Below are positions 22,314-58,554 of a stretch of 59,702 nucleotides of DNA, piece after piece. The notes under the pieces were generated by a model. It was given only the letters and a program-made list of their open reading frames with translations. It made no database searches and was not told where the DNA came from. Numbering within the stretch: position 1 is the stretch's first letter; each line of letters opens with the position of its first letter. The position numbers and the translations under genes were made by a program. Origin of the DNA: an uncultured Alphaproteobacteria bacterium (GTDB lineage Bacteria > Pseudomonadota > Alphaproteobacteria > JAJFIK01); assembly GCA_964531285.1 (NCBI GenBank), contig CAZHDI010000010.1, positions 1 through 59,702 on the forward strand, in the 5' to 3' direction.

Positions 22314-22315
22314 CA

Positions 22316-43338: not shown

Positions 43339-43398
43339 TGGACGGCGGGCGGGGCGCGCTCAGCGGTCCGCTCAATCCGTCCCGCTAACCGGCATCGC

Positions 43399-44623: not shown

Positions 44624-44953
44624 ATGGCTCCCATCATCAGACTGCTCCTCGTTGGTTTTGCCGCCGTTTCCATCTCGGCTTGCGCCACCGCTCACGGCGA
44701 CGTCCCCAGCGACATCAGCCAATACGATCAGCCGCTGGGCGATGGTTACGGGGAGACCCGCTTTGTGGTCTCGCGTGATTTCAAACTGCGGACCTCGCCG
44801 AATGTGAATGCCCGCGTGATGGACCGGATCCCGGAATCGACCCGGCTGACCGCACGGGTCACACAGGTGGACGATGTCTGGTACCACATCGACATCACCG
44901 GCGGTCCCGATGGCTATATGTTCGGCTTGCCGCTTCAACACGATCCGTATTGA
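44624..44953 (+). CDS. small lipoprotein with bacterial SH3-like domain
   Basis: Lipobox ISAC. C-terminal LRTSPNVNARVMDRIPESTRLTARVTQVDDVWYHI resembles SH3b. ATG at 44624 is preceded by AAGGAG. Confidence 0.65.
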   Translation: MAPIIRLLLVGFAAVSISACATAHGDVPSDISQYDQPLGDGYGETRFVVSRDFKLRTSPNVNARVMDRIPESTRLTARVTQVDDVWYHIDITGGPDGYMFGLPLQHDPY

Positions 44954-45036
44954 TGCGCAAGGCCGGATCTTAGGGCGTTGACAAACCGAGCGTTTTAGCA
45001 AGATAGCCGAAGAAGCACGAAAACCCATCAGTACCC

Positions 45037-45146
45037 GTCATGCCCGCGGACGCGGGCATCCAGCACCGCACGGCACTCACTCCAAGCGGAGACCTGAAAC
45101 CGTCGCCCCTGGATGCCGGATCTGCGCTGCGCTTGTCCGGCATGAC
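45037..45146. repeat. MITE/REP-like intergenic element made of two hairpin modules
   Basis: GTCATGCCCGCG-ga-CGCGGGCATCCAG (45037-45063) and CTGGATGCCGGA...TCCGGCATGAC (45109-45146). The ends are mutually inverted. Resembles the widespread GTCAT[TG]CCCGCG...GGGA/CATCCAG alphaproteobacterial repeat family. Confidence 0.6.
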
Positions 45147-45181
45147 GACCTCTGGAGAAAATGACGTTCTCATCAGTCTGA

Positions 45182-45207
45182 GACCCGGCCCAGCCGGGTC
45201 TTTTTTT
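45182..45207 (+). terminator. Rho-independent terminator
   Basis: GACCCGGC-cca-GCCGGGTC followed by TTTTTTT. Confidence 0.8.
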
Positions 45208-45291
45208 ATGGCGTTTGAGCCGTACCGGGAAAATTTGGGCCTGATCCGTCCATACGCCGTTACAGCGGATCCATTTGAAGGGAACAGGGCG

Positions 45292-46257
45292 ATGATGAAC
45301 GGGATTTGGGTGCGGTGCGGCGTTTTCGCCGTTGGCTTTGCCGGCCTGACACTGCTGGCGATGGCGACGGCCATGGCGTCGCACGGGCCGCGCGTCGAAG
45401 TGCAATACAAGAAAACGGATATCAAGGAGATGGTCCGGGCCGAGGCGATGCGTCAGGGCACCGTTCCGATCGCGCTCGCGCTCGGCGTGGCCCGGGTGGA
45501 ATCCAATTTCAATGCCAACGCGCTGAGCTCAGCCGGCGCCCGCGGGGTGATGCAGATCATGCCGCGGACCGCGCGCACCGAATTCGGGGTCGATCCGGAC
45601 GATCTTTGGGACCCGGCGTTGAATATCCGCCTGGGGATCAGATTTCTGTCCCGCCTCTATGCCATCTACGGCAACCGGTGGGACGCGGCCCTGTCGCATT
45701 ACAATGGCGGAACCCTGGACGGCGATCCCTTGACCGCGCCGCCCCATGGCTACACCCGGGGGTATGTCGCGTCCGTGCTCAAATGGGCCGACCGCTATGA
45801 GGCCGAAACCGGCGTCGCGCTCGCGGGCGGTGAGCGCTACAGCGATCCGGCGCCCGTGACCGCCACGTCCGATGCCGCGCTTGCCGCGCGGTTCCGGGCC
45901 CGGCTTGATGCGCAAAACGGCAGCGCGCCGCAGCCCGTGTCCGAAACACAGGCGCCGGAGCCCCACGTAATCGACGTCGGCTCCGCGGTGACCGCTGCCG
46001 GTGTTGCGCCGGTCTGGGCATACCGGTCGACTGAACCGCGGATGACCCTCAATGCGGGCCCGGCGGCGGCGCAGCCCGCCTATCGGACGGCGCAAGTGGC
46101 GCCGCAGAACGCACAGGATTGGCGCGCGGCGCAGCCGGTCTCTGCCGCCGCCGTCTATCCCAATGACCCGGGGTCGTCCTTCGATCGGGTCGTGCGCCGC
46201 GACATGGGTGAATTGCGCGCCCGTTTCCGGGGCGCTATTCGTAGGGATCGCAACTGA
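45292..46257 (+). CDS. lytic transglycosylase (SLT domain) with Ala/Pro-rich C-terminal tail
   Basis: Signal anchor. ALGVARVESNFNANALSSAGARGVMQIMPRTA with the catalytic Glu. The track ORF N-terminus (45040-45291) is a translation of the repeat element. Confidence 0.85.
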   Translation: MMNGIWVRCGVFAVGFAGLTLLAMATAMASHGPRVEVQYKKTDIKEMVRAEAMRQGTVPIALALGVARVESNFNANALSSAGARGVMQIMPRTARTEFGVDPDDLWDPALNIRLGIRFLSRLYAIYGNRWDAALSHYNGGTLDGDPLTAPPHGYTRGYVASVLKWADRYEAETGVALAGGERYSDPAPVTATSDAALAARFRARLDAQNGSAPQPVSETQAPEPHVIDVGSAVTAAGVAPVWAYRSTEPRMTLNAGPAAAQPAYRTAQVAPQNAQDWRAAQPVSAAAVYPNDPGSSFDRVVRRDMGELRARFRGAIRRDRN

Positions 46258-46305
46258 GTGGAGACGGCGCGGCGGCGCTTTGGGCTGCGCGGGGGGCAGC
46301 AGGAC

Positions 46306-48000
46306 ATGGCGGACACGAGACCCGGAGTGCGCAAGCTTGTCGTGCTGTCCTTTCCGAAGGGCGAATTGCTCGATGCCCTGAAGCATCTGGAGATCGCCAG
46401 GACCCATCCCGGCGATGCGCCGCTGGTCTTCAAGCCCAAGACCATCCTGCGGATCACCCAGTTGCTGGTCGGCGGACCGGTGGATTTCGGGGTCTTGCGT
46501 CTGTGCCACTTTCTTGTGGCGGTGGCGGCCACCGATGAGGATCTGGGCAGCTTCCCCATGATGTTCCGGGGATCGCCGCGCGATGCGCGGGCGATCTTCA
46601 CCCGCGAGGCCCTGCAGCCCGTGATGGGTGCCCGCGTCAGTGCCTCCAAAGCGGGCATTGAACTGTCTTATCCAGACGGCGATTTTACCATCGATTACAG
46701 CGCCGTGCCGGAACTGCTGGCTCTGGCCGAGGTGCTGGCCAACGGCCTCGGCTATCACACGATCGGCGGGCTGATCGACGCGGTGCATGAGAGCCCGGTG
46801 TCGATGCAGCGGGTGAAAGACATCGCTCAATCGGTGATGCCGGAGTTCCGCACCTGGATCGAGCGCAATATGGCGGTGTCGCGCCAGAGCCGTCAAAAGT
46901 TCAAGAAGATGATCGATTTTCTGGAACGGTTCCGAGGTGCCGATTTCAGTACGGACGATATCGACGATGAAGCCGTTCTTGAGCTGTGGAAAGAGCATGC
47001 CGGCTCGGACGACGATTTCAAATTGTTCGGTACCGCGCTCGACAGTCTTCTGTTTCTCATCCGGCAGGCCCATGAGGGCCAGCGGCGCCTTGAGGAAGAT
47101 CGAATGGGCGGCCTCGATTTCGCTTACGAGGATGGCCGCTACACGATTGATCCGGGCTATGATCCTGAAGCCGACGATTTCGATACGTTCGCATCGTGGT
47201 TTGTCTTTATCAACGGGTCCGATGACGACGATGCGGATTTCGTCGCGCCGTTGAAAGATGCTGGCAATATTCTGTTCGCCAAGCAATGGGCCTGGCTGGA
47301 CCCTTATTGGCCCGCGCCGGACGGTCCGCATCTGATGCGCTCTCGCCTGCGGGCCGACGCCTTCGGAGCGCTTCAGCGGCGAATCGTTCAGGCACTGCGC
47401 CGCAATGCCAGCCGTACAGAGATCTGCGGGCTGATCGGCGTGGCGCCGGAGGAAACATATGATGTGATCGCCGGCCGGGCGGAAAAGGCGCATTCGGATA
47501 TTTGGACCGCGGCCCACGCGATCCTCCATGTCCTGATCGCGAGCGAACATGAAAATGCGCTGCATCTTCTGTACACGCTGCGTCAGCGGGATGTCGATCT
47601 GCGCAGTTTTGTCCAGACACTCGTTCTCGAAGATCTGGTCGACACCGAGGCCCTGGCCCGGGACGGGCTCGACGCGCTGGCCGATGCCTTTTTCGAGGCC
47701 CTGCGGCGCGGAGATATCACGCCCGATGACGTAGCGACGGTCGTGCGTCAGTCGGAGGGCTTCTGGCGTAAGCTTAAAGATCGGGCTGGTTTCAAGCCCG
47801 CCGAGATTGAAGACCCCGTCCGTGTGGAAAGCTTTGCCGAGGTGACGGGCGATTTGACGAAGGCCGTGACCCGGATCGGATCCGTGCGCACCATGATCGA
47901 TCGCGCGTGCCCGGCGGGGGAGCGGGAAAATCTGTTCAAATCCGACTATCAGAGTTTTGCGGGGCTGTTCCTGCGTCTCTATGTGGACGGTATTGAGTAG
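46306..48000 (+). CDS. hypothetical cytoplasmic protein (~565 aa, acidic, no recognisable motifs)
   Basis: Protein-like composition versus an Arg-rich 678-aa antisense ORF. An alternative GTG start at 46258 abuts the SLT stop. No Walker A motif seen. Confidence 0.65.
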   Translation: MADTRPGVRKLVVLSFPKGELLDALKHLEIARTHPGDAPLVFKPKTILRITQLLVGGPVDFGVLRLCHFLVAVAATDEDLGSFPMMFRGSPRDARAIFTREALQPVMGARVSASKAGIELSYPDGDFTIDYSAVPELLALAEVLANGLGYHTIGGLIDAVHESPVSMQRVKDIAQSVMPEFRTWIERNMAVSRQSRQKFKKMIDFLERFRGADFSTDDIDDEAVLELWKEHAGSDDDFKLFGTALDSLLFLIRQAHEGQRRLEEDRMGGLDFAYEDGRYTIDPGYDPEADDFDTFASWFVFINGSDDDDADFVAPLKDAGNILFAKQWAWLDPYWPAPDGPHLMRSRLRADAFGALQRRIVQALRRNASRTEICGLIGVAPEETYDVIAGRAEKAHSDIWTAAHAILHVLIASEHENALHLLYTLRQRDVDLRSFVQTLVLEDLVDTEALARDGLDALADAFFEALRRGDITPDDVATVVRQSEGFWRKLKDRAGFKPAEIEDPVRVESFAEVTGDLTKAVTRIGSVRTMIDRACPAGERENLFKSDYQSFAGLFLRLYVDGIE

Positions 48001-48015
48001 ACTGGAGGCATTGAC

Positions 48016-48576
48016 ATGGCGGTTACGTGGAGCAAGTTGCCCCCCCGCACGAGAACCGAGATCGAACAGGCATTCGGTGTTATGGACACCGCGAAGACCC
48101 TACTGGACGAGGTGAGCGCGATGGATGCGCCGTCGCGTCCGGGTATTCGCGATCTCTATCACTTTATGCTCCGCCCGCAGAGCGATGTGTCGGGCCGGGT
48201 CCAGCGTGCGCTGCGCGACGATCCGCGGGTGCAGCGGGATTTCGACAGCCTTCTGGAGCGCAATGGCGCCTTTGCGTTTCCGCAAGCCGCGGCGGCCAGT
48301 TCGACCCAGATCGAGGAACGCACCGACGTGGAAGGGTTGGCGCGGCTTCGGCTCCTGCCGTCGGATTCTCTGCCCGACGAGGCCTATCTGCTGATCGACC
48401 TCGATCCGTCGAACGGGCTGGAGCCGAAATGCCTCTATGTGAGCGGGACCGATGTCGGCTACATTGCGATACCGCTTGCGCCGCCGGAAAATGATACGAT
48501 CAGCATGATCCTGTCGTCGTCCAGCGACGAGGCGCGCGCGCTGTGGGACCCCAAGGCGAAGGTCCATCTGAAATAG
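48016..48576 (+). CDS. hypothetical protein (186 aa)
   Basis: RBS GGAGG. 15 nt after the upstream stop. Protein-like composition. Confidence 0.6.
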   Translation: MAVTWSKLPPRTRTEIEQAFGVMDTAKTLLDEVSAMDAPSRPGIRDLYHFMLRPQSDVSGRVQRALRDDPRVQRDFDSLLERNGAFAFPQAAAASSTQIEERTDVEGLARLRLLPSDSLPDEAYLLIDLDPSNGLEPKCLYVSGTDVGYIAIPLAPPENDTISMILSSSSDEARALWDPKAKVHLK

Positions 48577-48588
48577 ACGGTCGAGGCC

Positions 48589-49977
48589 ATGACGGATATT
48601 GCGGTCTATATTCCGACAACGAACGGGGCGAGCCAGGTCTTGAGTCTGACCAAGATCGGGCTCGATGGGTCGGACCGTGATTATCCGTCAATGATCGGCG
48701 TCAATCACACGACCCGGTCGATTTCCGGTTTACGGATTCGCTATGACGAGTTCGTCCGCGAGCCGACGGGCGTTATCGAGCGGCATACCGATCACCGGTC
48801 GTACCGGGTCGATGTGTCGGGCGATATCAGCCATGGCGACAGCTGGCAGCTCGGCTTGTTCATTGCTCATGCCCTGGCCGAAAGCGGTGCGGTCGGTCTT
48901 CAAGGCGATCGCGGGGAAAGTCTGACTCTCAAAGGCGGTCTTCACACCCGGTCCCAGAAGGCATCGGAAACCGCGCAGCAGGGCGAGGCCGGGATCGTCG
49001 TCTGGGCGACCGGGATCGTAACCTCCGGCCTTCATGTGCGCAGCGTCGGAGAAATCCTCTGTAAACTCGATCAGTCAGCGGATTTGTTTGAGGTAGCGCG
49101 TAAAGCAGGCGCCCGTGTTGTGTTTGCTCTGCCGGCGGAAAATCGTACGCCGGAGCTAGAAGCTTATTTCAAGACCCTGTCCGGTCATTTCTCAGAGTGC
49201 GATGTGGTTTTTGTCGATGACGTTGTTTTTGGCGAGCCTGCCGGTGGTGCGCAAACCGCGGTGACGGCGATGCCGTCCGCGGCATCTCCGGGCGCGCGCC
49301 CCGCCGCTGGTACGTCAGGTTTACCGATCAAAGCTGGCGCCATGGTGGCTGCAGGCGTTGCCGGGGCCGCGGTTCTGGCTTATGCGCTTTCGGGGCCGGA
49401 TGAAACAACGATGCCGGCCGCTGACGATCAGGCGGCGGCGGCATTCACGTCATCTGACCCTGTGCCGGAGCCCGCCGGCGGTTGGTCCCCGGCTCAAGCC
49501 GGCCGTTTGATCACCCATGTGGATGTGGATTTGCGGTTTCGCGATGATGTCTCCTTAAGCCTGCCGTGGGCCGGGGCGCCGTCGGCCGTCCTGCCGAGGG
49601 ATGCCGGGCGGATCGTGACCCATCGGGCGGGTGTCGATGTTGTGCTGGAAAATCCGAGTACGGAGCGCCTGGATGTTGCCTATGCGATCATTGACCAGCA
49701 ATCGGGGCTTTTGGCGTCCGGCCATGGTCAAGTTCAGCCGGTTGGCCGCTGGTCCGTGCCTTTGGAGGGCGACATAGGCGATCTTGAGGAGCGGGCTGTT
49801 TGGCTCTTTGCGGCGCCTCACCTGGCCGTGGATTTTTCCGAGGTCTTGGGAGGCGGTCTGTCGGACGGGACGGTTCGCGATATCCGGCAGTGGGCGGAGG
49901 ATCGCAATGTGGCGAGCTTCCGACTCGGCCGCAACACGCTGGCTGGCGATGTTCCGGCGACATCGTATACACCTTGA
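48589..49977 (+). CDS. bitopic membrane protein with N-terminal Lon-protease-like (S16-like) domain
   Basis: VDVSGDISHGDSWQLGLFIAHALA and VVWATGIVTSGLHVRSVGEILCKL...ARKAGARVVFALPAEN parallel the Lon GPSAG...MTGEI..G.V..IGG..EK...A...G...V.IP..N pattern. One TM helix (AGAMVAAGVAGAAVLAYAL). Confidence 0.55.
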   Translation: MTDIAVYIPTTNGASQVLSLTKIGLDGSDRDYPSMIGVNHTTRSISGLRIRYDEFVREPTGVIERHTDHRSYRVDVSGDISHGDSWQLGLFIAHALAESGAVGLQGDRGESLTLKGGLHTRSQKASETAQQGEAGIVVWATGIVTSGLHVRSVGEILCKLDQSADLFEVARKAGARVVFALPAENRTPELEAYFKTLSGHFSECDVVFVDDVVFGEPAGGAQTAVTAMPSAASPGARPAAGTSGLPIKAGAMVAAGVAGAAVLAYALSGPDETTMPAADDQAAAAFTSSDPVPEPAGGWSPAQAGRLITHVDVDLRFRDDVSLSLPWAGAPSAVLPRDAGRIVTHRAGVDVVLENPSTERLDVAYAIIDQQSGLLASGHGQVQPVGRWSVPLEGDIGDLEERAVWLFAAPHLAVDFSEVLGGGLSDGTVRDIRQWAEDRNVASFRLGRNTLAGDVPATSYTP

Positions 49978-49992
49978 CGGGGAGGACATGAG

Positions 49993-50535
49993 ATGAGCCT
50001 GCATCGGATCACATTACGCGCTAGGGGCGGCACTCTTGCCGCGGCCGTCGCGGTGCTGGTTGTTGCCGCGCCGGCGGGTGCAACAACAAGCGAGCGCTAT
50101 GACCGGGAGGGTTACATCTCGGCGTTGACGCCCATTACCGGCGACGAGACGCCGGCGAAGGTCGATCTCTATCTGACCTTCGCGTTCGGGTCTGCCGCAC
50201 TCACCGGCGACGCCCGGAACCAGCTTGACGTGCTGGCCGAGGCGATCCTGTCGGACGGCTTGCAGAGGGCGCGCTTCGGTCTCTACGGGCATACCGATGC
50301 CGTCGGTTCGGCGGCTTATAACGAGGATCTCTCAGCCCGCCGCGCCCGCGCCGTGCGGGATTATCTTGTTGGCCAAGGGGTCACGCCAGACCGGCTCGAT
50401 AGCCGTGGTTTCGGGGAAACCCGGCCGAAAAATCTGCTGGACCCTGAAGCCGCCGAGAACCGCCGGGTCGAGGTTGTCAATCTGACACCGCCGCCGGCGC
50501 CCGCCGGGTCTATGACGCCCATTACCGGCGATTGA
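49993..50535 (+). CDS. OmpA/MotB-family peptidoglycan-binding protein
   Basis: Signal peptide. FAFGSAALT ... GHTDAVGSAAYNEDLSARRARAV ... NRRVEV. Confidence 0.9.
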   Translation: MSLHRITLRARGGTLAAAVAVLVVAAPAGATTSERYDREGYISALTPITGDETPAKVDLYLTFAFGSAALTGDARNQLDVLAEAILSDGLQRARFGLYGHTDAVGSAAYNEDLSARRARAVRDYLVGQGVTPDRLDSRGFGETRPKNLLDPEAAENRRVEVVNLTPPPAPAGSMTPITGD

Positions 50536-50716
50536 ACGAAGCCCCTCGGGCCCCCGTTCATCGGCCCGCCTCCTCCCGCTGTCCCCCGATAGTGCGCGAC
50601 CCATTCTCATTCGCGACAGGTTTCAAGTGTGATGAGCCGATAGTTGAGTGGCGCCGGAACCCGGCGTAGCATCACGCGGAGAGATATCACCGACGATCCC
50701 TTGAGGAGGGGCTGGA

Positions 50717-51169
50717 ATGACCAAGCTGAATGTCAATGGCCAGGCCATGGAGGTCGAGGCTGACGAAAACACGCCGTTGCTCTGGGTCCTCAGGGAACAG
50801 TTGGGCCTCACCGGAACGAAATATGGCTGCGGCATCGCACAATGCGGTGCCTGTACCGTTCATGTCGACGGAATGGCCGTCCGCGCCTGTGTTTATCCGC
50901 TGGCCGCGGTCGCCGAGGGCAGCCAAATCACGACTATCGAAGGATTGTCCGAAGACGGCAGCCATCCGGTACAGGAAGCGTGGGCGGAACTCGACATTCC
51001 ACAATGCGGCTATTGCCAGCCCGGTATGATCATGGCGGTGTCCGCTCTGCTTGCGGAAAATCCGAATGCGACCGATGACGATATCGACGCGCAGATTACC
51101 AATATCTGCCGCTGCGGGACCCTGGCTCGGGTCCGCAAGGGCATCCATTTGGCAAAAACCAAGATTTGA
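50717..51169 (+). CDS. (2Fe-2S)-binding small subunit of a xanthine-oxidase-family molybdo-hydroxylase (IorA-like)
   Basis: [16 protein letters not shown] and CGYCQPG cluster motifs. 150 aa. Confidence 0.9.
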
Positions 51170-51183
51170 GGCGGAGAGAACCT

Positions 51184-53400
51184 ATGGTCGATACACAGTC
51201 GATTTCCCGGCGCCGCTTCATGATCAGTGCCGGTGCGGCAGGCGCGGGCCTGACGATCACCCTTATGGGCGGATGCTCCGAAGCGCAGGACGGACCGGTT
51301 GAGACGGCCTCAGCACCGGAAGTGCCCGCGGGCCCGGCGCCGGAAGTCAATGCCTGGGTCCATATCGGAACGGACGATACGGTCACGATACGGATCGCCC
51401 GTTCGGAGATGGGGCAGGGCACGCTGACCGGTCTGGCCCAACTCGTCGCCGAAGAGCTTCAGTGCGATTGGGACAAGGTGGTCACCGAATATCCGACGCC
51501 GGGGCAAAATCTCGCTCGGGAGCGCGTGTGGGGCAGTTTCTCCACCGGCGGGAGCCGCGGCATCCGCGACAGCCATCAATATGTCCGCGAAGGCGGTGCT
51601 GCCGCGCGCATGATGCTGATCGAAGCAGCAGCGGCTGAATGGGATGTTCCGGCAACGGAGTGCTCAGCCAAGGACAGCATCATCACCCATGGGCCGTCCG
51701 GCCGCACAACGACCTATGGTGCGGTGGCCACGGCGGCGGCCTCCCTGGCTCCGCCGATTGAAATCACGCTCAAGGATCCGTCGGAATGGACCATCGCCGG
51801 TCAGCCGAAGGCGCGTCTCGACACGGCGGATAAGCTCACCGGCAAGCAGATCTATGGCGCGGATTTGACCCTACCGGGCATGCTGAATGCCAGCATCCGG
51901 CAGGCGCCAATGATCGGCGGCACCCTGGCGTCCTATGACGAAGCCGCCGTCCTGTCGATGCCGGGTGTCAAGAAAGTCGTTCCGGTCGGCGATAACGCGG
52001 TGGCCGTCGTGGCCGACACCTGGTGGCAGGCCAACACGGCACTCGATGCGCTGCCGATGGACTGGACGCCGGGCGAAGGATCGGATTATTCGAGTGCGGC
52101 CTTCGATGCTGAACTGGATGATGGTCTGACCGCTGACGAAACTTTCGTCGGCAACGCGATCGGTGATGTAAAGGCGGCCCTTGAAGGGTCGGCGCAGGTC
52201 GTTGAAGCGACCTATAATATGGCTCATCAGAACCACGCCTGCATGGAGCCGATGAATGCCACTGCGGTGTGGACGGAAGACAAGTGTGAGGTCTGGTGCC
52301 CCACGCAGAACGGTGAGGGGGCACTGGCGGCTGTCGCCGATGCGGCCGGTCTCGATATCCAGAACTGCGATGTGCACAAGATTCACCTGGGCGGCGGTTT
52401 CGGACGCCGGGGCATGAACGATTACGTCGCTCAGGCGGTGGAGATTGCCAAAGCCATGCCCGGCACGCCGGTCAAGCTTCTGTGGACCCGTGAAGAAGAC
52501 ATGGTGCACGGATTTGTGCACCCGACCACCAAGGCGCGCATGACCGGCGGTCTTGATGCGGAGGGTAATCCCACCGGGCTGCATCTTCGGATCTCGGGAC
52601 AATCCATCCTCGCCGCGTTGATGCCGCAGGCGCTGAACGATGGTATGGACTTCGCCACCTTTCAGGGCCTTCTGCCGTCCGGTGTCGATCCGCGGGTGGA
52701 AGATCAGACTCTGAAGCATACGTTCCCGACACTGCTGGTCGATCACGCCATGCGCAATCCTCCGGTTCGGCCGGGGTTCTGGCGCGGCGTCAATGCCAAT
52801 CAGAATGCCATCTATCTGGAATGTTTCGTCGATGAAATGGCCCATGCGGCGGGACGGGACCCGCTGGAGTTCCGGCTGTCGTTGATGGGCGATGCGCCGC
52901 AACTGGCCGCAGTGTTGCAGGCGGTCGCGGACAAGTCCGGTTGGGGCGCGGATGATGGCAAGGCGCGGGGTCTGTGTGCGTTCTATTCCTTCGGGGCTTA
53001 CACCGCCGCCTGTGCGGAAGTGACGGTCGATGACAATGGCCACTTGAAGATGGACCGCATCGTCGCGGCTACGGACCCGGGGATGGCCGTCAACCCGCAA
53101 CAGATCGAGGCGCAGGTCGAAGGGTCCTTCGTGTACGGATTGTCGGCGATGCTGTTCGGCGAGATCACGGTTGAGAATGGTGAGGTTCAGCAGCGCAATT
53201 TCGACACGTTCGACTCGCTGCGTCTGGCGGACATGCCGGAAGTCGAGACCATCGTCATGCCGTCGGGCGGCTTCTGGGGCGGGGTTGGTGAGCCGACCAT
53301 CGCCGTGGCGGCACCGGCCGTGCTCAATGCGATCTTTGCCGCGACCGGCAAGCGCATCCGGCAATTGCCGATCAAGGATCAGGATTTGCGACCGGCATGA
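51184..53400 (+). CDS. molybdopterin-binding large subunit (IorB / membrane-bound aldehyde dehydrogenase-like), Tat-exported
   Basis: Twin-arginine signal SRRRFMISAGAAGAGL. Sequence resembles xanthine dehydrogenase family MoCo subunits. ATG at 51184 is preceded by GGAGAG. Confidence 0.85.
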   Translation: MVDTQSISRRRFMISAGAAGAGLTITLMGGCSEAQDGPVETASAPEVPAGPAPEVNAWVHIGTDDTVTIRIARSEMGQGTLTGLAQLVAEELQCDWDKVVTEYPTPGQNLARERVWGSFSTGGSRGIRDSHQYVREGGAAARMMLIEAAAAEWDVPATECSAKDSIITHGPSGRTTTYGAVATAAASLAPPIEITLKDPSEWTIAGQPKARLDTADKLTGKQIYGADLTLPGMLNASIRQAPMIGGTLASYDEAAVLSMPGVKKVVPVGDNAVAVVADTWWQANTALDALPMDWTPGEGSDYSSAAFDAELDDGLTADETFVGNAIGDVKAALEGSAQVVEATYNMAHQNHACMEPMNATAVWTEDKCEVWCPTQNGEGALAAVADAAGLDIQNCDVHKIHLGGGFGRRGMNDYVAQAVEIAKAMPGTPVKLLWTREEDMVHGFVHPTTKARMTGGLDAEGNPTGLHLRISGQSILAALMPQALNDGMDFATFQGLLPSGVDPRVEDQTLKHTFPTLLVDHAMRNPPVRPGFWRGVNANQNAIYLECFVDEMAHAAGRDPLEFRLSLMGDAPQLAAVLQAVADKSGWGADDGKARGLCAFYSFGAYTAACAEVTVDDNGHLKMDRIVAATDPGMAVNPQQIEAQVEGSFVYGLSAMLFGEITVENGEVQQRNFDTFDSLRLADMPEVETIVMPSGGFWGGVGEPTIAVAAPAVLNAIFAATGKRIRQLPIKDQDLRPA

Positions 53401-53747
53401 CCTCACACCGTATCCGACCGGTTTCGGGATGGGCGCTGGCAGCCGTTCTGGTTGCCGGCGTTGCCGTTTCGGGATGCCGGTCGGATGCGGCGGACACAAC
53501 GGATGCCAGTGGTCCGGGGCTCGGCTCGCCGGCCCTCCTGGCGGCGTCCTGTTCGGGGTGTCACGGGACGGACGGAGCTGCCATTCCGGTTCTGGATGAT
53601 CTGACGGCGGACATGATTGCCGCCTCCTTAAAGACCTATCGGGACGACGCTGCTGGTAGCACGGTCATGCACCGCCTGACGCGTGGCTACAGCGATGCCG
53701 AGATCGATGCCATTGCCGCGTATCTCGCGGCGGAAGGCGGTGGCTGA
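53397..53747 (+). CDS. monohaem c-type cytochrome (flavocytochrome c cytochrome subunit-like, FccA/SoxE type)
   Basis: Single CSGCH haem motif and a signal or possible lipobox (VSGC). The start overlaps the Mo-subunit stop (ATGA). Confidence 0.75.
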   Translation: MTSHRIRPVSGWALAAVLVAGVAVSGCRSDAADTTDASGPGLGSPALLAASCSGCHGTDGAAIPVLDDLTADMIAASLKTYRDDAAGSTVMHRLTRGYSDAEIDAIAAYLAAEGGG

Positions 53748-53748
53748 C

Positions 53749-55020
53749 ATGACCTTCGTCACGCGGCGGGCACTGATGGCTGGACTGTCGGCGGCCGGCT
53801 TGACCGTCGCCGCGCCGGCTATCGTGCGGGGTGCGACCAGTGCGCGCGTCGCCGTGATCGGCGGCGGGTTCGGCGGGGCGATCGCAGCGCGCATGGTCAA
53901 GCGTCTGATGCCGTCGGCGAGCGTGACTCTGATCGAGCCGAACCGGACTTATACGGCCTGTCCGTTTTCCAATCTTGTCATCGGCGGTTTGCGCGATCTG
54001 GCGGATCAAGCGTTTTCCTACGCGGCTTTGGCCGACGAGGGGATCGCGCTCATTGCACAAGCCGCTCGCGATGTGGACCCGGCGGCCCATACGATCACCT
54101 TGGCCGATGGCGCCGCTCTTGGCTATGACCGCCTCATCCTGTCGCCGGGTATCGATATTCGCTGGGGAGCCTTGGCGGGATATGATCCGTCGGCGGCCGA
54201 TGTAATGCCTCATGCCTGGAAGGCCGGCCCGCAGACCCAGTTGCTGCGCCGTCAGCTTGAAGCCATGGATGACGGCGGGCTCGTGGTGATGACTGCGCCG
54301 GCGGCGCCCTTTCGCTGCCCGCCGGGGCCGTATGAGCGCGCGAGTTTGATTGCTCACTATCTGAAGACGTACAAGCCGCGCGCCAAGCTCCTTGTTCTGG
54401 ATGCCAAGGACCAATTCTCTAAACAACCCCTGTTTCTTGAGGCGTGGGCTGCTCATTATCCGGATCATTTGGAATGGCGCGGTGCGTCCGATGACGGGCG
54501 GGTCTCCCGTGTCGATGGCGGTGCGATGACCGTTGACACCGATTTCGAAACGATCCAGGGCGATGTGATCAACGTCATTCCGCCGCAGCGCGCCGCGCTC
54601 ATCGCGGACCGGGCCGGTGTTGCGGATGCCACCGGATGGTGCCCTGTCGATGCTGTTGCATTTGAGTCGACCCTTCAGCCGCATGTTCACGTGATTGGAG
54701 ACGCCTCCATCGCCGCGCCCATGCCGAAATCCGCCTTCTCGGCCAATCTGCAAGGCAAGCTGTGTGCCATCCATGTCGTCCGTTTGCTGACGGGGCGTGA
54801 GCCCGAGCCGACGGTGCTTGCCAACACTTGTTACTCCTATATCACGCCCGAGGAAGCCGTATCGATTACCGGGGTTTACAGCAATGAAGGCGGGCGGTTT
54901 GCCAATGTGCGCGGCGCGGGCGGTCTGAGTCCCCTTGGGGCCGGTGCTGACCTCCGGGCCGCAGAAGCGGGGCAGGCGGACGATTGGTTCCGCACCATCA
55001 CACGCGAGACATTCGGATGA
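53749..55020 (+). CDS. flavocytochrome c sulfide dehydrogenase flavoprotein subunit (FccB/SoxF-like)
   Basis: Tat signal TRRALMAG. FAD fold VAVIGGGFGGAIAA. ATG lies 1 nt after the upstream TGA. Confidence 0.85.
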   Translation: MTFVTRRALMAGLSAAGLTVAAPAIVRGATSARVAVIGGGFGGAIAARMVKRLMPSASVTLIEPNRTYTACPFSNLVIGGLRDLADQAFSYAALADEGIALIAQAARDVDPAAHTITLADGAALGYDRLILSPGIDIRWGALAGYDPSAADVMPHAWKAGPQTQLLRRQLEAMDDGGLVVMTAPAAPFRCPPGPYERASLIAHYLKTYKPRAKLLVLDAKDQFSKQPLFLEAWAAHYPDHLEWRGASDDGRVSRVDGGAMTVDTDFETIQGDVINVIPPQRAALIADRAGVADATGWCPVDAVAFESTLQPHVHVIGDASIAAPMPKSAFSANLQGKLCAIHVVRLLTGREPEPTVLANTCYSYITPEEAVSITGVYSNEGGRFANVRGAGGLSPLGAGADLRAAEAGQADDWFRTITRETFG

Positions 55021-55466
55021 TGGTCCGGGGGGCAGCCGGGCTACTTATGGTCGGGCTGATAGCGGCCTGCACCGATGCCGCACCGCTTGTTGATCCGGCT
55101 CAGATCGACGGCGATGCCATCCCAGCCGCGCTGAGCGGCGTCTCGGGAGATGCGGCCATCGGCAAAGCCGTCTTCGTTGAGCGTGAGCAAGGGCACTGTG
55201 TCCTATGCCATCAAATCGACGGCCTGGAGGCGCCCTTTCAAGGGAATGTCGGTCCTGCTTTGACAGGACTTGGCAGCCGGTTAAACAAGGGGCAGATCCG
55301 CCTGCGGATTGTCAATGCTTCTGTGCTTAATCCGTCGACGATTATGCCGCCCTACTATCGTATCCGCGGCCTGAACCAAGTGGCCGATGAGCATCGGGGC
55401 GCGCCAGTTCTGACGGCGGATCAGATCGAACACTTGGTTGCGTATCTGTCATCATTGAAAGGGTAG
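55017..55466 (+). CDS. soxX: sulfur-oxidation c-type cytochrome SoxX-like
   Basis: Single CVLCH haem motif and a lipoprotein-like signal (IAAC). ATGA overlap with the upstream gene. Confidence 0.75.
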   Translation: MMVRGAAGLLMVGLIAACTDAAPLVDPAQIDGDAIPAALSGVSGDAAIGKAVFVEREQGHCVLCHQIDGLEAPFQGNVGPALTGLGSRLNKGQIRLRIVNASVLNPSTIMPPYYRIRGLNQVADEHRGAPVLTADQIEHLVAYLSSLKG

Positions 55467-55470
55467 GTTC

Positions 55471-55941
55471 ATGCCGGATCGGATCCATCCGATGCTGACG
55501 CGGCGCACGGTTTGCGCTGGCCTTGCCGTCGCTGCCATTGCCGCGCCGATTGCACGGGCCCGAGCGATCGAGATGCCGGAAAAGACGCGCGCCGCGATTC
55601 TTGAGTTATTCGGTGACCGGCCCCTTGAGGAGGCACGCGTCACGATCACCATGCCGCCGATTGCCGAGAACGGATTTTCCGTACCCGTTGCGGTCGATGT
55701 GGACAGTCCCATGAGTGAAGCGGACCATGTGCGCCGAATTGCGCTGGTCGCCGAACGCAATCCCATTGCGACGCTGTTTCAGTGTCACCTTGGGCCTCGA
55801 GCCGGTCGGGCCAGTGTCGCGACAAGGGTGCGCCTTGCAGGAACACAGACGATCCGCGCGATTGCTGAAACCAACGATGGGCGGCTTTGGGTTGCCGGCA
55901 CGGAAGTTGTCGTGACGCTTGCCGCCTGTGTGGTGTTGTAG
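55471..55941 (+). CDS. SoxY-related carrier protein with non-canonical C-terminal arm (…LAACVVL)
   Basis: Tat signal TRRTVCAGLA. PPIAENGFSVPVAV SoxY core. The C-terminus lacks GGCGG and ends in AACVVL. Confidence 0.75.
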   Translation: MPDRIHPMLTRRTVCAGLAVAAIAAPIARARAIEMPEKTRAAILELFGDRPLEEARVTITMPPIAENGFSVPVAVDVDSPMSEADHVRRIALVAERNPIATLFQCHLGPRAGRASVATRVRLAGTQTIRAIAETNDGRLWVAGTEVVVTLAACVVL

Positions 55942-55950
55942 GGGACGGTC

Positions 55951-56274
55951 ATGGCCAATACCATTCGTATCCTGGTACCCGAAACCGCCGCGGCGGGCGA
56001 GGTTATCGAACTCAAGGCGTTGATCCGCCATCCGATGGAAAGCGGATTTCGGCGCGGCTCGCGTGGTGAGGTGATCCCGCGCGACATCATCACGGACTTT
56101 GTGTGCCTTTATGATGGTGAAGAAATCTTCCGCGCGGACTTCTTCCCGGCCGTTGCGGCCAATCCCTTTCTGACCTTCTATACTGTCGCCATGAACAGCG
56201 GCACGCTGGAGTTTCGCTGGACCGATCAAAATGGTGAGACCTGGTCGCAGACGGCGGAGTTGATCGTTACATGA
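55951..56274 (+). CDS. soxZ: SoxZ-like carrier complex subunit
   Basis: 107 aa. GEVIELKALIRHPMESGFRR is typical of SoxZ. Confidence 0.8.
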   Translation: MANTIRILVPETAAAGEVIELKALIRHPMESGFRRGSRGEVIPRDIITDFVCLYDGEEIFRADFFPAVAANPFLTFYTVAMNSGTLEFRWTDQNGETWSQTAELIVT

Positions 56275-57062
56275 TCCGGAAGGCGGTCATGGGGATGCTG
56301 TTTGGCTTCCTGGCGGCGTGCAGCCCGCAATCGGATCCGGTTGAGCCCGCTTCTCTCGATGCGGATGAAAAGCGATCCGGCTACAGCTTTTTGACGCCCG
56401 ACACCCAGGCTTTGCAAGACGACGATTTTGCCAATCCTGGTTATCTCTGGGTGGATCGCGGTGAGGCTTTGTTCCATGAAGCATCGGCAGGCGGGCCGTC
56501 TTGCGGGTCCTGCCATGAAGGGGAGACTGGCCATCTGAAGGGTGTCGCGGCGCGCTATCCGGCCATGGATAGGCAGAGCGATACATTGGTCAATCTTGAA
56601 GGCCGGATCAATTTGTGCCGGACACGGCATCAGAATGCGCCGGCGCTGGACTATGAGAGCGATGGGCTTCTCGCACTCACCGCCTATGTGGCATCCTTAT
56701 CACGCGGGATGCCGCTTTCGGTTTCCGTCAGTGAGCAGACCAGATCGTTCTACACTCAAGGCGAGGTGTATTTCTTCACGCGGCGCGGCCAGCTCAATCT
56801 CGCATGCAGTCAGTGTCACAACGAAAATTGGGGTAAGCGACTGCGCGGCGACACAATCAGCCAAGGGCATGGAACGGGCTTTCCGGCCTACCGGCTGGAA
56901 TGGCAAACCCTAGGGTCCCTGCACCGCCGGCTTTACGATTGCGATGCCGGGGTTCGGGCGGAACCAAAGGACCTGGGGTCGCCCGTTTATACGGCCCTGG
57001 AATATTACCTTGCCGTCCGGGCATCGGGCCTCACGGTCGAGGCGCCCGGTGTGCGGCGGTAG
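56271..57062 (+). CDS. soxA: dihaem sulfur-oxidation cytochrome SoxA-like
   Basis: Two haem motifs (CGSCH, CSQCH) and an RRLYDCDAGVRAEP block carrying the conserved Cys. ATGA overlap with soxZ. Confidence 0.8.
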   Translation: MIRKAVMGMLFGFLAACSPQSDPVEPASLDADEKRSGYSFLTPDTQALQDDDFANPGYLWVDRGEALFHEASAGGPSCGSCHEGETGHLKGVAARYPAMDRQSDTLVNLEGRINLCRTRHQNAPALDYESDGLLALTAYVASLSRGMPLSVSVSEQTRSFYTQGEVYFFTRRGQLNLACSQCHNENWGKRLRGDTISQGHGTGFPAYRLEWQTLGSLHRRLYDCDAGVRAEPKDLGSPVYTALEYYLAVRASGLTVEAPGVRR

Positions 57063-57081
57063 CTTCTCTGCCTTCAGCGCA

Positions 57082-58554
57082 TTATTCCCAGGGATTGATC
57101 GGCGGCAGAATGGTCGGCAATGGCTGCTCGAGGCTATCCGTCTGGCGCGCGGGTCTGAAAGCCGCCAGCGGTTCCTCGGTTCGTTGCTGCTCCAGCCAAA
57201 AGACCCCGTCAAAGGGTTCGCTGTTCCCCCGTGTACCGATGAAATCCAAATCGCCGTCCCGATCGAGATCGCGGGCAATGAATTTGTCGAACATGCCGCG
57301 CGTGCGGCGGCTGATGTCATGGCGCACCCAGGGTTGGCCCGGTTCGCCGGTATTCTGGAACCAGCCCAGGCGGCCAAGCGCATCATTCCGGCCGATATCC
57401 GCGCCGTCGCGATCACGGGGACCGCGGCTGTAACTCCCGGCAAAGACATCGCCGTCGCCATCGCCATCGATGTCGGCGGCAATCAGTCCAACGACCATAT
57501 CGGGAAAAAACGTGCCGATTGGGTGTGCCGTCCATGTCTCGCCGAGATTCGCCGGTTGCTCCAACCAGGCAATACCGCCCGTGGTGGCCGCAACAATATC
57601 CAGCCGGCCGTCACCATTGAGATCGTCGTAAGCCAGATTGAAGCCGCCCGCCTTGACACGGTCAATCGTTATCGGGTGCTCCGTAAAGGCAAGTGCATTC
57701 GGCGTACTGACATTCTCAAAAAGGACGATCCGATTATCGACCCGAAGACCTCCAATGACATCGAGATCGCCATCGCCATCAAGGTCCACCGGTTCGGCAT
57801 TCTGCGGGATTCGATACCGGCCGAGTACGTGCTCCGACCAGCTTGCCTGCGCCAGGGGATCACCAGTGATCTTGAAAACGGAAATGGCAGTCGGCTTTGC
57901 CGTCGCCCGGTCCGGGTTTTGCTTTCCCTTGTTCGCCGCCGACACCTCAGGGCGGCCGTCCCCGTCAAAATCGGCGAAAAATACGCGGATCCAGGATCCG
58001 CGATCCTGCGTGATCGCTGGGATGATGTGGTCCCAAGGACGTGTGCGACTATCCGCTCCCGGATTCTGAAAGTAGGCCAGATGCGCCAACTCCGACGCGA
58101 TGATGATATCCGGCCAGCCATCGCCATTCAGATCCGCAATCGACGCGTCCTCTGGTGCGGCGGCGAGCGGGCCGTCCGCAAGCGTCACATTCACCCACTT
58201 GGTAGGGTCATCAGTCGCGAAGGCAATCCGGACATGGCCGTTCGGGACCCCATCATAGACGGTGTCCGACTCATGGACCGAGACGATATCCTCTCGGCCG
58301 TCGCCGTCGAGATCGGCCATAACAAGGCCATCACTGCCGCTAATGGCCTCCCCGCTCAAGGCCACATCGTCGATTACGTGCTCCTGCCAGGAGATGAAAT
58401 GGCCATCGTCTGCTATTGCGGACGTCGGCGTATCGGCGACCGTGGGAGCGTGATCCTCGGTGGCCATGAGCGGGAATATCCAAGCACTGCCAACAAAAAT
58501 GGCCAGGAACCCAGCGATCAGAGGCATTCTGTTGCGCCAAAACCGTCCGGTCAT
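57082..58554 (-). CDS. FG-GAP/VCBS-repeat beta-propeller protein (secreted or membrane-anchored)
   Basis: N-terminal TM/signal. Seven D-x-[DN]-x-D-G-x-x-D blocks (DLDGDGREDIV, DLNGDGWPDII, DFDGDGRPEV, DLDGDGDLDVI, DLNGDGRLDIV, DIDGDGDGDVF, DLDRDGDLDFI). Confidence 0.85.
   Translation of the reverse strand: MTGRFWRNRMPLIAGFLAIFVGSAWIFPLMATEDHAPTVADTPTSAIADDGHFISWQEHVIDDVALSGEAISGSDGLVMADLDGDGREDIVSVHESDTVYDGVPNGHVRIAFATDDPTKWVNVTLADGPLAAAPEDASIADLNGDGWPDIIIASELAHLAYFQNPGADSRTRPWDHIIPAITQDRGSWIRVFFADFDGDGRPEVSAANKGKQNPDRATAKPTAISVFKITGDPLAQASWSEHVLGRYRIPQNAEPVDLDGDGDLDVIGGLRVDNRIVLFENVSTPNALAFTEHPITIDRVKAGGFNLAYDDLNGDGRLDIVAATTGGIAWLEQPANLGETWTAHPIGTFFPDMVVGLIAADIDGDGDGDVFAGSYSRGPRDRDGADIGRNDALGRLGWFQNTGEPGQPWVRHDISRRTRGMFDKFIARDLDRDGDLDFIGTRGNSEPFDGVFWLEQQRTEEPLAAFRPARQTDSLEQPLPTILPPINPWE

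Follow-up and report, generated by a model that had tools for sequence, protein, structure and literature searches.

Eight closely packed genes on the + strand of the window (the whole stretch of DNA analysed, 59,702 nt), at positions 50717–57062, are best explained as one conserved operon. The operon is widespread and apparently undescribed; a literature search found no description of the eight-gene module. We tentatively read it as a sulfur oxidation module that is built around a carrier protein, lies in the periplasm and is for the most part tethered to the membrane, and in which a molybdenum enzyme, IorAB, may oxidise carrier-bound sulfur and so replace both SoxCD and SoxB; we regard this as a real possibility rather than a probable one.

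The genes encode, in order, an IorA-like protein, an IorB-like protein, an FccA-like cytochrome, FccB, SoxX, a SoxY variant (SoxY′), SoxZ and SoxA. The eight genes and their junctions (14, −4, 1, −4, 4, 9 and −4 nt), as listed in the initial annotation, were recovered, and its family assignments held in Pfam and NCBIfam profile searches. Judged by junction lengths, the packing is operon-like. Three of the eight starts are internal ATGs inside longer stop-to-stop ORFs; an IorA/IorB spacing of 10–15 nt was also called at orthologous loci. Upstream of iorA lies a 181-nt intergenic region (50536..50716), the presumed promoter region of the operon. A consensus scan of this region gave no sigma-70-like promoter and no terminator, and an Rfam search of it gave no match; a GGAGG ribosome-binding site was read just 5′ of the iorA ATG. 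The upstream neighbour of iorA varies among orthologous loci; therefore, the conserved unit begins at iorA. The possibility raised earlier of a terminator separating iorB from the cytochrome gene does not fit what we saw, since the two genes share 4 nt and nothing resembling a terminator was seen where they meet. The last gene is soxA, with a convergent FG-GAP gene ending 19 nt downstream.

The adjacency of iorAB and sox genes goes far beyond what chance would give: it is seen again in all 61 informative species genomes (those with at least 5.3 kb of DNA upstream of SoxY′), and is thus not the peculiarity of a single genome that the initial annotation had allowed for. IorA and IorB were upstream of SoxY′ in 61 of 61, and all eight genes were present in 59. 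The hosts, mostly marine or soil heterotrophs, span Alphaproteobacteria and Gammaproteobacteria; Hyphomonadaceae, Parvibaculaceae, Maricaulaceae, Hyphomicrobiales, Rhodospirillales, Halieaceae, Spongiibacteraceae, other Pseudomonadales and Burkholderiales are among them. Cultured hosts include Hyphomonas polymorpha, Henriciella, Neorhizobium galegae and Methylobacterium sp. NMS14P. Flanking genes vary between loci. The same eight genes are reordered on one plasmid, in Roseomonas marmotae (IorA-IorB-SoxX-Y-Z-A-cyt c-FccB). Some variant clusters are without FccAB (L069, L087, L097, L112, L113, L136, L151), others without both FccAB and SoxXA (L026, L078, L079, L085, L091–L101, L131, L135, L144), and all of these keep IorA-IorB-SoxY-SoxZ. 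The clade with this minimal set consists of deeper-branching relatives, where no other gene recurs and no cytochrome is encoded by the cluster. As the deeper relatives keep only these four genes, the invariant core is the Mo enzyme with the carrier; FccAB and SoxXA are add-ons.

The IorA-like small subunit (50717..51169, +; Pfam Fer2 and Fer2_2) has two [2Fe-2S] clusters, with the cysteine motifs CGIAQCGAC...C and CGYCQPG...CRCG both present in the translation, and lies directly 5′ of IorB at all informative loci. Having no signal peptide, it is presumably co-exported with IorB. The IorB-like molybdopterin large subunit of the xanthine-oxidase family (51184..53400, +; Pfam MoCoBD_1 and MoCoBD_2) probably uses the MCD form of the cofactor; it has a Tat motif (SRRRF) followed through 64 of 64 orthologues as an RRx motif, as well as a lipobox-like MGGC. 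Among solved structures its nearest relative is the large subunit of a membrane-bound aldehyde dehydrogenase, 8gy3_C (E 2e-80, full-length alignment). Like AldFGH (8gy3) and isoquinoline 1-oxidoreductase, IorAB pairs a small subunit that has two 2Fe-2S clusters with a MoCoBD large subunit exported by Tat, and it has no FAD subunit; the catalytic GxGE glutamate is conserved between IorB and 8gy3. The 8gy3 enzyme, from acetic acid bacteria, has a multi-haem (three-haem) cytochrome subunit, whereas none is encoded here and the fixed genetic partner is a SoxYZ carrier. The multi-haem cytochrome that had been named as the normal partner of such enzymes is thus apt for the closest solved relative, but does not define IorAB-type enzymes as a whole. 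Among characterised enzymes, the nearest relatives hydroxylate aldehydes and N-heterocycles, an observation that speaks against a sulfur-oxidation reading.

The Mo enzyme looks active, to judge by residues invariant among 148 relatives (Q375, the GGGFGRR motif, R534 and E703) and by cofactor genes nearby: MoaA, XdhC-MocA, MoaE, MoaC, MoaB and MoeA flank the cluster at 27–33 of 80 loci. The position of bovine XDH E802, after GGGFGRR in the pocket, is Gly here and in 92% of the carrier-linked IorB enzymes, but Leu in 8gy3 and Thr in a sister subclade without SoxYZ. Gly may enlarge the pocket, which would fit the admission of a peptide arm. The SoxYZ-less subclade, found as tandem IorAB arrays, exists; therefore, this enzyme type needs no carrier intrinsically.

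The third gene encodes an FccA-like monohaem cytochrome c (CSGCH; 53397..53747, +; Pfam Cytochrom_C / Cytochrome_CBB3), a predicted lipoprotein (VSGC) with a lipobox-like motif in 53 of 59 orthologues. In the PDB it best matches the cytochrome subunit of the flavocytochrome c sulfide dehydrogenase from Thioalkalivibrio, 5n1t_B (E 2e-11). The fourth gene (53749..55020, +; Pfam FCSD_central, FCSD-flav_bind and Pyr_redox_2) encodes the flavoprotein subunit of sulfide dehydrogenase, of the FccB / SoxF type; it carries a Tat signal and the conserved motif RCPPGPYERAS, and its top match is 5n1t_A (E 4e-130, full length). The small cytochrome adjoins FccB wherever it was detected and is absent from every FccB-less cluster; on these sequence relations, it is the FccA-type partner of FccB. 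Genes 3 and 4 thus match both subunits of the monohaem-FccA flavocytochrome c of Thioalkalivibrio paradoxus (5n1t); the differences are that the pair is embedded here between iorB and soxX and that the cytochrome is a predicted lipoprotein. With the cytochrome assigned to FccB (5n1t_B, 5n1t_A), the earlier suggestion that two unrelated dehydrogenases share one cytochrome and one promoter is disfavoured.

The remaining genes encode the Sox proteins. SoxX (55017..55466, +) is a monohaem cytochrome passing TIGR04485 (81.5 bits, cut-off 61) and a predicted lipoprotein (IAAC), with a lipobox-like motif in 53 of 76 orthologues. SoxY′ (55471..55941, +; Pfam SoxY) has a Tat signal and misses the true-SoxY model TIGR04488 (101.3 bits, cut-off 125); its highest score is on TIGR04487, ‘SoxY-related AACIE arm protein’, though below the cut-off (152.9 versus 172 bits). 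Its C-terminal arm, ...VVVTLAACVVL, replaces ...VTIGGCGG, with C153 falling on the carrier cysteine in alignment to the SoxY structures 4uwq_B and 2ox5_Y; the pattern of the arm family is T(L/V)AAC(V/I)(V/I)x. An (A/S)AC arm is also found in clusters without SoxXA, so the modified arm follows IorAB and not SoxXA. SoxZ, the partner of SoxY′ (55951..56274, +; Pfam SoxZ), passes TIGR04490 (92.1 bits, cut-off 76). Dihaem SoxA (CGSCH, CSQCH; 56271..57062, +), a predicted lipoprotein (LAAC), passes TIGR04484 (224 bits, cut-off 110) and matches Rhodovulum SoxA, 1h31_A (E 2e-52), the RLYDC cysteine falling on RFRGC in the alignment.

Features shared with the canonical Sox system of Paracoccus pantotrophus and Rhodovulum (SoxXA, SoxYZ, SoxB, SoxCD, SoxEF) are SoxX, SoxZ and SoxA that pass curated equivalog models, a SoxA that aligns along its whole length to its Rhodovulum counterpart, cysteine ligand and both haem motifs included, a carrier of SoxY fold whose cysteine is C-terminal, and a SoxEF/FccAB-type flavocytochrome. 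However, the arm is GGCGG there and TLAACVVL here, the constant partner here is a xanthine-oxidase-family Mo enzyme, and SoxB and SoxCD are missing from the window, as had been noted at the outset. Neither SoxB, SoxCD, SorAB nor Dsr genes were found in the window, Pfam searches of 30 further large ORFs included; phmmer searches in which Ciceribacter queries were run over every six-frame ORF of 50 aa or longer gave no SoxB, SoxC or SoxD there. SoxB and SoxC were also missing at ∼170 related loci. As a control, the search recovered SoxB, SoxC and SoxD in a canonical Sox locus. A further difference is that one host of the module is thiosulfate-negative: Hyphomonas polymorpha PS-728, which carries all eight genes (locus L049), served as negative control when thiosulfate oxidation was assayed with a pH indicator (PMC12943752). 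Therefore, thiosulfate-to-sulfate conversion is probably not the function of the module.

The hub of the module that we tentatively propose would be SoxY′Z, with the carrier cysteine on the altered arm (AAC-V-V-L, not GGCGG). FccAB and SoxXA would load the carrier by attaching sulfide- or thiosulfate-derived sulfur to this cysteine. IorAB, the only enzyme that always accompanies SoxY′, would then oxidise the carrier-bound sulfane sulfur in successive two-electron steps, each inserting oxygen at the Mo centre, with electrons leaving via the two [2Fe-2S] clusters to c-type cytochromes. Because no hydrolase is conserved with the module, the simplest product to be released, after a four-electron oxidation, would be sulfite; the persulfide dioxygenase reaction would thereby have a counterpart that needs no oxygen. 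IorAB would in this way assume the roles of SoxCD and SoxB.

In canonical Sox, the partner enzymes SoxXA, SoxB and SoxCD all act on the SoxY arm. SoxCD, a periplasmic Mo enzyme, oxidises the outer sulfur of the persulfide on the SoxY cysteine, with cytochrome c as electron acceptor; IorAB could be its functional analogue, albeit with a xanthine-oxidase rather than a sulfite-oxidase fold and with no SoxC homologue present. It counts against this reading that no member of the xanthine-oxidase family is known to oxidise sulfur or act on a protein-bound substrate. The variant pathway put forward in the initial annotation, with a Mo-hydroxylase working on a carrier, gains support as to functional coupling (61/61 linkage, the gene set kept when reordered, a stand-alone four-gene core); a direct action of IorAB on the carrier, sulfane sulfur as the bound species and sulfite as the product are our inferences. 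The SoxYZ-less sister subclade and the cytochrome-less minimal clusters were counted against sulfur oxidation, as were the H. polymorpha assay (PMC12943752) and the PQQ-linked SoxYZ-like carriers (PMC12997753).

One could instead suppose that IorAB oxidises a free aldehyde or N-heterocycle and that SoxY′Z, with FccAB and SoxXA as its loading enzymes, does not carry the substrate but assists IorAB, either by resupplying its labile periplasmic Mo=S sulfido ligand or by scavenging sulfide and reactive sulfur species that would poison the Mo site. Xanthine-oxidase-family enzymes do require a cyanolysable Mo=S ligand, and the closest solved relative of IorB is an aldehyde dehydrogenase. The thiosulfate-negative H. 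polymorpha agrees with such a role (PMC12943752), as do the SoxYZ-like carriers genetically linked to periplasmic PQQ alcohol dehydrogenases (PMC12997753, PMC11237559), for which maturation, redox control or protection from sulfur nucleophiles was suspected rather than substrate carriage (PMC12997753). Those systems share with ours a SoxYZ-type carrier outside canonical Sox tied to a periplasmic dehydrogenase; however, their carrier is fused and accompanied by SoxH and rhodanese, whereas SoxY and SoxZ are separate here, with a Mo enzyme as partner and SoxXA and FccAB alongside. Many clusters have a neighbouring gene for an XdhC-type chaperone, a protein that supplies sulfurated cofactor in the cytoplasm, other periplasmic enzymes of the family (the SoxYZ-less subclade included) work without a carrier, and cofactor upkeep would be a costly use of FccAB and SoxXA, both complete sulfur-oxidising enzymes; we consider this role unlikely. 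Rather more doubtful is an organic substrate: the SoxY′ cysteine would capture a reactive compound of carbon or organic sulfur (either an aldehyde, bound as a thiohemiacetal, or a thiol such as methanethiol, bound in a mixed disulfide made by SoxXA), IorAB would hydroxylate the carbon and release an acid or aldehyde, and FccAB would handle co-released sulfide. Attack on carbon is closer to the known chemistry of the family, but its enzymes attack the sp2 carbons of free aldehydes directly, with no need of a thiol adduct. The hydrophobic arm tail (VVL), unlike the glycine-rich arm used for sulfur anions, the mostly heterotrophic marine or soil hosts, and divergent SoxY/SoxYZ proteins adjoining alcohol, methanol and formate dehydrogenases (PMC11237559) would suit such a substrate; on the other hand, all accessory enzymes are inorganic-sulfur enzymes (curated SoxX, SoxZ and SoxA models passed; FCSD matches), and no methanethiol oxidase, alcohol dehydrogenase or thioesterase recurs near the cluster.

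It seems very improbable that an IorAB-type dehydrogenase and a truncated Sox/Fcc system are mechanistically independent and share the operon through common conditions or a common cytochrome pool. Operons can contain unrelated genes (PMC11237559), and, with the cytochrome between iorB and fccB being FccA-like, no gene of the cluster is demonstrably a dedicated electron acceptor of IorAB. Yet linkage is 61/61 in hosts from two classes of Proteobacteria and amid many different neighbouring genes, the gene set stays complete when its order changes, the four-gene IorA-IorB-SoxY-SoxZ unit occurs without any other sulfur enzyme, and the modified arm goes with IorAB, not with SoxXA.

With oxidation of carrier-bound sulfur by IorAB as our tentative preference, the eight-gene operon points to a way of oxidising sulfur that has gone unstudied in bacteria, in a module that can be tested in cultured hosts.

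Eight ORFs, all on the + strand, were found again in the region 50717-57062, with the junctions of 14, −4, 1, −4, 4, 9 and −4 nt reported in the initial annotation, and each of the eight family assignments was upheld by Pfam and NCBIfam. The genes code for an IorA-like 2Fe-2S subunit (50717-51169, 150 aa), an IorB-like Mo subunit (51184-53400, 738 aa), an FccA-like cytochrome c (53397-53747, 116 aa), FccB (53749-55020, 423 aa), SoxX (55017-55466, 149 aa), a SoxY-like protein, SoxY' (55471-55941, 156 aa), SoxZ (55951-56274, 107 aa) and SoxA (56271-57062, 263 aa). A TTG at 51166 was tried as the start of iorB (the frame is open, with a 4-nt overlap with iorA); ATG at 51184 was preferred because in orthologous loci the annotated iorB starts 10-15 nt after iorA. 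No promoter or terminator, a possibility raised in the initial annotation, parts iorB from the cytochrome gene: the two genes overlap by 4 nt and their junction has no terminator-like site. A consensus scan of 49900-57500 detected no sigma-70-like promoter, and terminator-like sites were seen only within coding sequence, at none of the gene junctions; Rfam gave no element, and hence no Moco riboswitch, either for the window as a whole or for the iorA upstream region. As the neighbors on both sides of the cluster vary among orthologous loci, the conserved unit extends from iorA to soxA. When the iorA upstream regions were compared for a common operator, an AT-rich inverted repeat, CATTA-N7-TAATG (CATTATTTAGGTTAATG), was found ∼72 nt before iorA in seven fetched loci of Henriciella-like genomes (L019, L029, L032, L035, L042, L050, L054); it may be a candidate operator and is absent from the window.

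The operon follows a co-directional run of ORFs (38845-50535, +) with almost no Pfam matches; it includes a Trypsin_2 protease, several unknown proteins, an SLT transglycosylase, then unknown proteins of 580, 186 and 462 aa and, at its end, directly upstream of the operon, an OmpA-family protein. This run may be an uncharacterized envelope system. Elsewhere on the window, a family-2 glycosyltransferase gene precedes four tandem DUF3131 paralogues of 444, 498, 484 and 721 aa (20472-28578, +), with a full-length DUF3131 match in each; the gene of an RTX calcium-binding repeat protein with DUF4114 adjoins those of a type I secretion ABC transporter and an HlyD-family adaptor (6031-11476, −). The presence of two sulfatases, a TauD-family dioxygenase and a sulfotransferase on the contig (3070-4755, +; 33020-33985, −; 36210-37736, −; 37877-38743, +) indicates that the organism handles organosulfates.

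The adjacency of the Mo enzyme and sox genes turned out to be conserved beyond the window. In an alignment scan with SoxY', using one genome per GTDB species, at least 417 genomes had a relative, and the best 80 of these were analyzed. IorA and IorB stand upstream of SoxY' in all 61 loci with at least 5.3 kb of upstream sequence, and 59 of the 61 have all eight genes; the 19 loci with shorter upstream sequence are all consistent, being either truncated by a contig end or smaller variants still keeping IorAB. IorB orthologues at 72-81% identity are abundant; the three such loci that we inspected had the same eight genes (3/3) in different flanking contexts. The same eight-gene cluster was seen in SoxY'-family loci from Rhodobiaceae, Halieaceae and a JGI scaffold of isolate size. 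The window is a whole MAG contig of 59,702 bp, and its best relatives belong to Hyphomonadaceae or Caulobacterales. Cultured carriers of the cluster include Hyphomonas polymorpha PS728, Hyphomonas sp. CY54-11-8 and FCG-A18, several Henriciella species, Taklimakanibacter lacteus, Neorhizobium galegae (on a chromid), Methylobacterium sp. NMS14P (on a plasmid) and Roseomonas marmotae (on a plasmid). When the 6.3-kb region was compared with plasmids by megablast, the sole match was 58 nt long and lay in a 2Fe-2S gene. Exact matches were scarce as well: the SoxY' of the window was seen only on a Logan contig of 2 kb, and its IorB had none. In R. marmotae the same eight genes are reordered (IorA-IorB-SoxX-Y-Z-A-cytochrome c-FccB); thus, selection acts on the gene set, not merely on its order.

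In Hyphomonas sp. FCG-A18 (L004, 6660-7418), iorA is immediately preceded by a gene of the TauE/SafE 'sulfite exporter family', and a second such gene lies near a SoxYZ-FccAB module of Phyllobacterium (L175, 14507-15235). This gene does not generally recur beside the clusters; such a neighbor would be of interest if sulfite were the product.

Some variant clusters have no FccAB; others have neither FccAB nor SoxXA and consist of IorA-IorB-SoxY-SoxZ alone. When the IorB of one minimal cluster was used to scan metagenome contigs, 54 loci extended 1.2 kb or more past IorB: SoxY/Z followed in 33, five ended within Fcc/SoxX and 16 had none of these. Most of the 16 loci without SoxYZ form one subclade of a neighbor-joining tree and occur in tandem IorAB arrays; one soil metagenome contig of this carrier-less sister subclade (L105, 1-7985) has three tandem IorA/IorB pairs and no SoxYZ. 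In the deep-branching minimal clade, IorA, IorB, SoxY and SoxZ are the sole recurring genes. Since clusters lose FccAB, or both FccAB and SoxXA, and keep IorAB with SoxYZ, the invariant core is the Mo enzyme plus the carrier, and FccAB and SoxXA are optional modules. A long ORF in L026 considered as an IorB-SoxY fusion was rejected, as it is another reading frame overlapping iorB.

IorA has two [2Fe-2S] motifs and IorB has the MoCoBD_1 and MoCoBD_2 domains of Pfam, the composition of the IorAB/AldH subtype; there is no gene for a FAD subunit (CO_deh_flav) in the cluster. The Tat motif of IorB is SRRRF, and an RRx motif is present in 64 of 64 orthologues. Among solved structures, the closest to IorB is that of a membrane-bound aldehyde dehydrogenase large subunit (8gy3; E 2e-80); the alignment runs from end to end, and the catalytic glutamate E703 (GVGEP) falls on GLGEP of 8gy3_C. 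Q375, GGGFGRR, R534 and E703 do not vary across 148 IorB relatives, and the Mo-hydroxylase machinery therefore looks intact; by alignment offset, we take the equivalents in bovine XDH to be Q767, the F798 loop and E1261. No more than three columns of the alignment tell carrier-linked IorB apart from the carrier-less sister subclade (G/A at 122, G/T at 410 and G/H at 531). G410 (GGGFGRR-G) and G531 (RP-G-FWR) flank Mo-site motifs; at the former position, presumably that of bovine E802, the aldehyde dehydrogenase 8gy3 has Leu. Small residues at 410 and 531 would enlarge the pocket.

The dedicated multi-haem cytochrome c subunit of AldFGH-type enzymes is absent, as the initial annotation had observed: unlike those enzymes, the IorAB cluster of the window is accompanied only by monohaem (FccA-like, SoxX) and dihaem (SoxA) proteins, and no multi-haem ORF was found downstream in the related loci. 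Genes for MoaA, an XdhC-MocA fusion, MoaE, MoaC, MoaB and MoeA stand beside the cluster in 27-33 of the 80 loci and are the only gene families recurring there; this is consistent with a sulfurated cofactor of MCD type and with a major Mo client.

The carrier is a SoxY variant. SoxY' scores 101.3 against the model of true SoxY with a GGCGG arm (TIGR04488, cut-off 125) and thus fails it; its best-scoring model is TIGR04487, 'SoxY-related AACIE arm protein', at 152.9, which is below the cut-off of 172, and some orthologues bear the TIGR04487 name at NCBI. Its C-terminus reads ...VVVTLAACVVL, with an (A/S/G)AC arm in place of GGCGG, and C153 falls on the carrier cysteine in alignments with solved SoxY structures. 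SoxZ, which starts 9 nt after SoxY', passes its curated equivalog cut-off. The SoxY' family is large and has the arm T(L/V)AAC(V/I)(V/I)x; marine forms end in AAC(V/I)(V/I)(L/G) and soil forms in AAC(T/L/V)E(E/D). The arms in minimal clusters, where SoxXA is missing, are of xGCG(L) or (A/S)AC type, and the modified arm thus tracks IorAB rather than SoxXA.

SoxX (81.5 against a cut-off of 61 for TIGR04485) and SoxA (224 against 110 for TIGR04484) pass their models, and the dihaem SoxA aligns with 1h31_A, close to the Rhodovulum enzyme. FccB has the FCSD_central and FCSD-flav_bind domains and matches 5n1t_A (E 4e-130) with a conserved active-site region; the small cytochrome c matches 5n1t_B (E 2e-11). 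As both subunits of 5n1t, the flavocytochrome c sulfide dehydrogenase of Thioalkalivibrio, are matched, the small cytochrome is predicted to be FccA, the partner of FccB, and not a recognizable IorAB subunit. A simple regular-expression count gave lipobox-like motifs in 53/59 FccA-like, 53/76 SoxX, 51/74 SoxA and 37/64 IorB proteins, and Tat motifs in IorB, FccB and SoxY'; these motifs suggest a membrane-tethered periplasmic assembly. Plasmids also carry a SoxY-SoxZ-cytochrome c-FccB-like flavoprotein module without IorAB, SoxXA or SoxB, at 8929-11370 of L171 (Sinorhizobium meliloti pSymA) and 9881-12315 of L175 (a Phyllobacterium zundukense plasmid); it was seen in 35 plasmid records of Sinorhizobium and has a gene for a metallophosphoesterase close by. 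Its make-up points to direct pairing of SoxYZ carriers with FccAB-type enzymes, too.

Neither SoxB nor SoxCD is present in the window, as first noted; Pfam searches of the window also gave no SorAB or Dsr gene. With authentic SoxB, SoxC and SoxD of a canonical Ciceribacter cluster as phmmer queries against every six-frame ORF from the window and from 175 fetched loci, SoxB and SoxC were absent from the window and ∼170 related loci, and both were matched solely in a canonical sox locus of Indioceanicola (L173), which served as positive control; SoxD matches at other loci were rejected as generic c550-type cytochromes. Canonical thiosulfate-oxidizing Sox has SoxB and a GGCGG-arm SoxY, whereas the window cluster shares its SoxXA and has neither. 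A pH-indicator assay of thiosulfate oxidation used H. polymorpha PS-728T as its negative control (PMC12943752); the full cluster in this species (L049) argues, if weakly, against a thiosulfate-to-sulfate function.

In our view, the module is a carrier system of Sox type in which another enzyme does the processing. A carrier protein requires loading enzymes as well as processing or unloading enzymes; in canonical Sox, SoxXA is the loader, and SoxB and SoxCD are the processors. FccAB and SoxXA would be plausible, dispensable loaders of SoxY'Z. IorAB would dock on SoxY'Z and oxidize the sulfur on C153, with electrons passing from the Fe-S clusters of IorAB to c-type cytochromes; since no hydrolase is conserved, release of the product as sulfite after a four-electron oxidation would be the simplest outcome. 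As IorAB is always present and a hydrolase or SoxCD is never linked, IorAB acting on the carrier would be the most economical model. We consider it very likely that IorAB and SoxY'Z are functionally coupled, and give the full model as stated somewhat less than an even chance. The specific sulfane-dehydrogenase mechanism for IorAB is a tentative proposal, one that we would sooner doubt than accept. Equally tentatively, one could speculate that IorAB is a carrier-dependent persulfide (sulfane) dehydrogenase, the first xanthine-oxidase-family molybdoenzyme acting on a protein-bound substrate and on sulfur, and that with SoxY'Z it might provide a periplasmic route from sulfide/polysulfide to sulfite that needs neither SoxB, SoxCD nor oxygen; the module is present in at least ∼400 species, mostly heterotrophic marine and soil Proteobacteria.

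The initial annotation had left two alternatives. One, a Mo-hydroxylase in a variant sulfur-oxidation pathway, is strengthened by conserved linkage as far as the coupling of IorAB with the carrier goes; its chemistry stays as tentative as just stated. The other, unrelated dehydrogenases sharing one cytochrome and one promoter, is disfavored, the small cytochrome being FccB's own partner, and it is very unlikely that the enzymes are independent and merely co-regulated. Several points, however, speak against IorAB as a processor of carrier-bound sulfur: precedent for sulfur or protein-bound substrates is lacking in the xanthine-oxidase family, a carrier-less IorAB sister subclade exists, an electron outlet is missing in minimal clusters, and SoxXA is left without a clear role if thiosulfate is not the substrate. 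The carrier might instead maintain or protect an ordinary aldehyde or heterocycle dehydrogenase, which we regard as unlikely; in the ped cluster of Pseudomonas, a SoxYZ-like carrier with SoxH and a rhodanese stands beside PQQ dehydrogenases, and maturation, redox control or protection was suggested as its role (reviewed in PMC12997753). That the carrier holds an organic substrate is quite unlikely. The flanks of minimal clusters, scanned for a clue to the substrate, had only unrelated NmrA, SnoaL, amidase, amidohydrolase and thioesterase genes.

We found no description of an association of IorAB with SoxY' in the literature, and the NCBI annotation of the parts is generic; the module is widespread and apparently undescribed. 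A study of SoxY diversification tied divergent SoxY copies to DMSO reductase, tetrathionate reductase, PQQ alcohol dehydrogenase and XoxF/formate dehydrogenase neighborhoods, and did not mention Mo-hydroxylases (PMC11237559). In a 2026 survey that took SoxABXYZ as the criterion of a sox cluster, ∼1000-1300 'insulated' soxA, soxX, soxY and soxZ paralogues were merely counted (PMC13500833).

SoxY paralogues with altered arms are known to be numerous; one large family of them, in at least 417 species genomes, is now seen to have its fixed partner in a wholly different enzyme class. The IorAB partner offers a concrete hypothesis for the role of the 'insulated' sox copies that had been set aside. 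If the Mo-hydroxylase does process carrier-bound sulfur, the known chemistry of the xanthine-oxidase family would widen, and Sox-type pathways would have a third solution to the sulfane-oxidation step, beside SoxCD and rDsr/sHdr. Predictions from genomes would shift too: Hyphomonadaceae, Halieaceae, rhizobia and methylobacteria at present scored as 'incomplete Sox' could then be sulfide or polysulfide oxidizers. Cultured, partly genetically tractable hosts are at hand in N. galegae, Methylobacterium, Hyphomonas and Henriciella.
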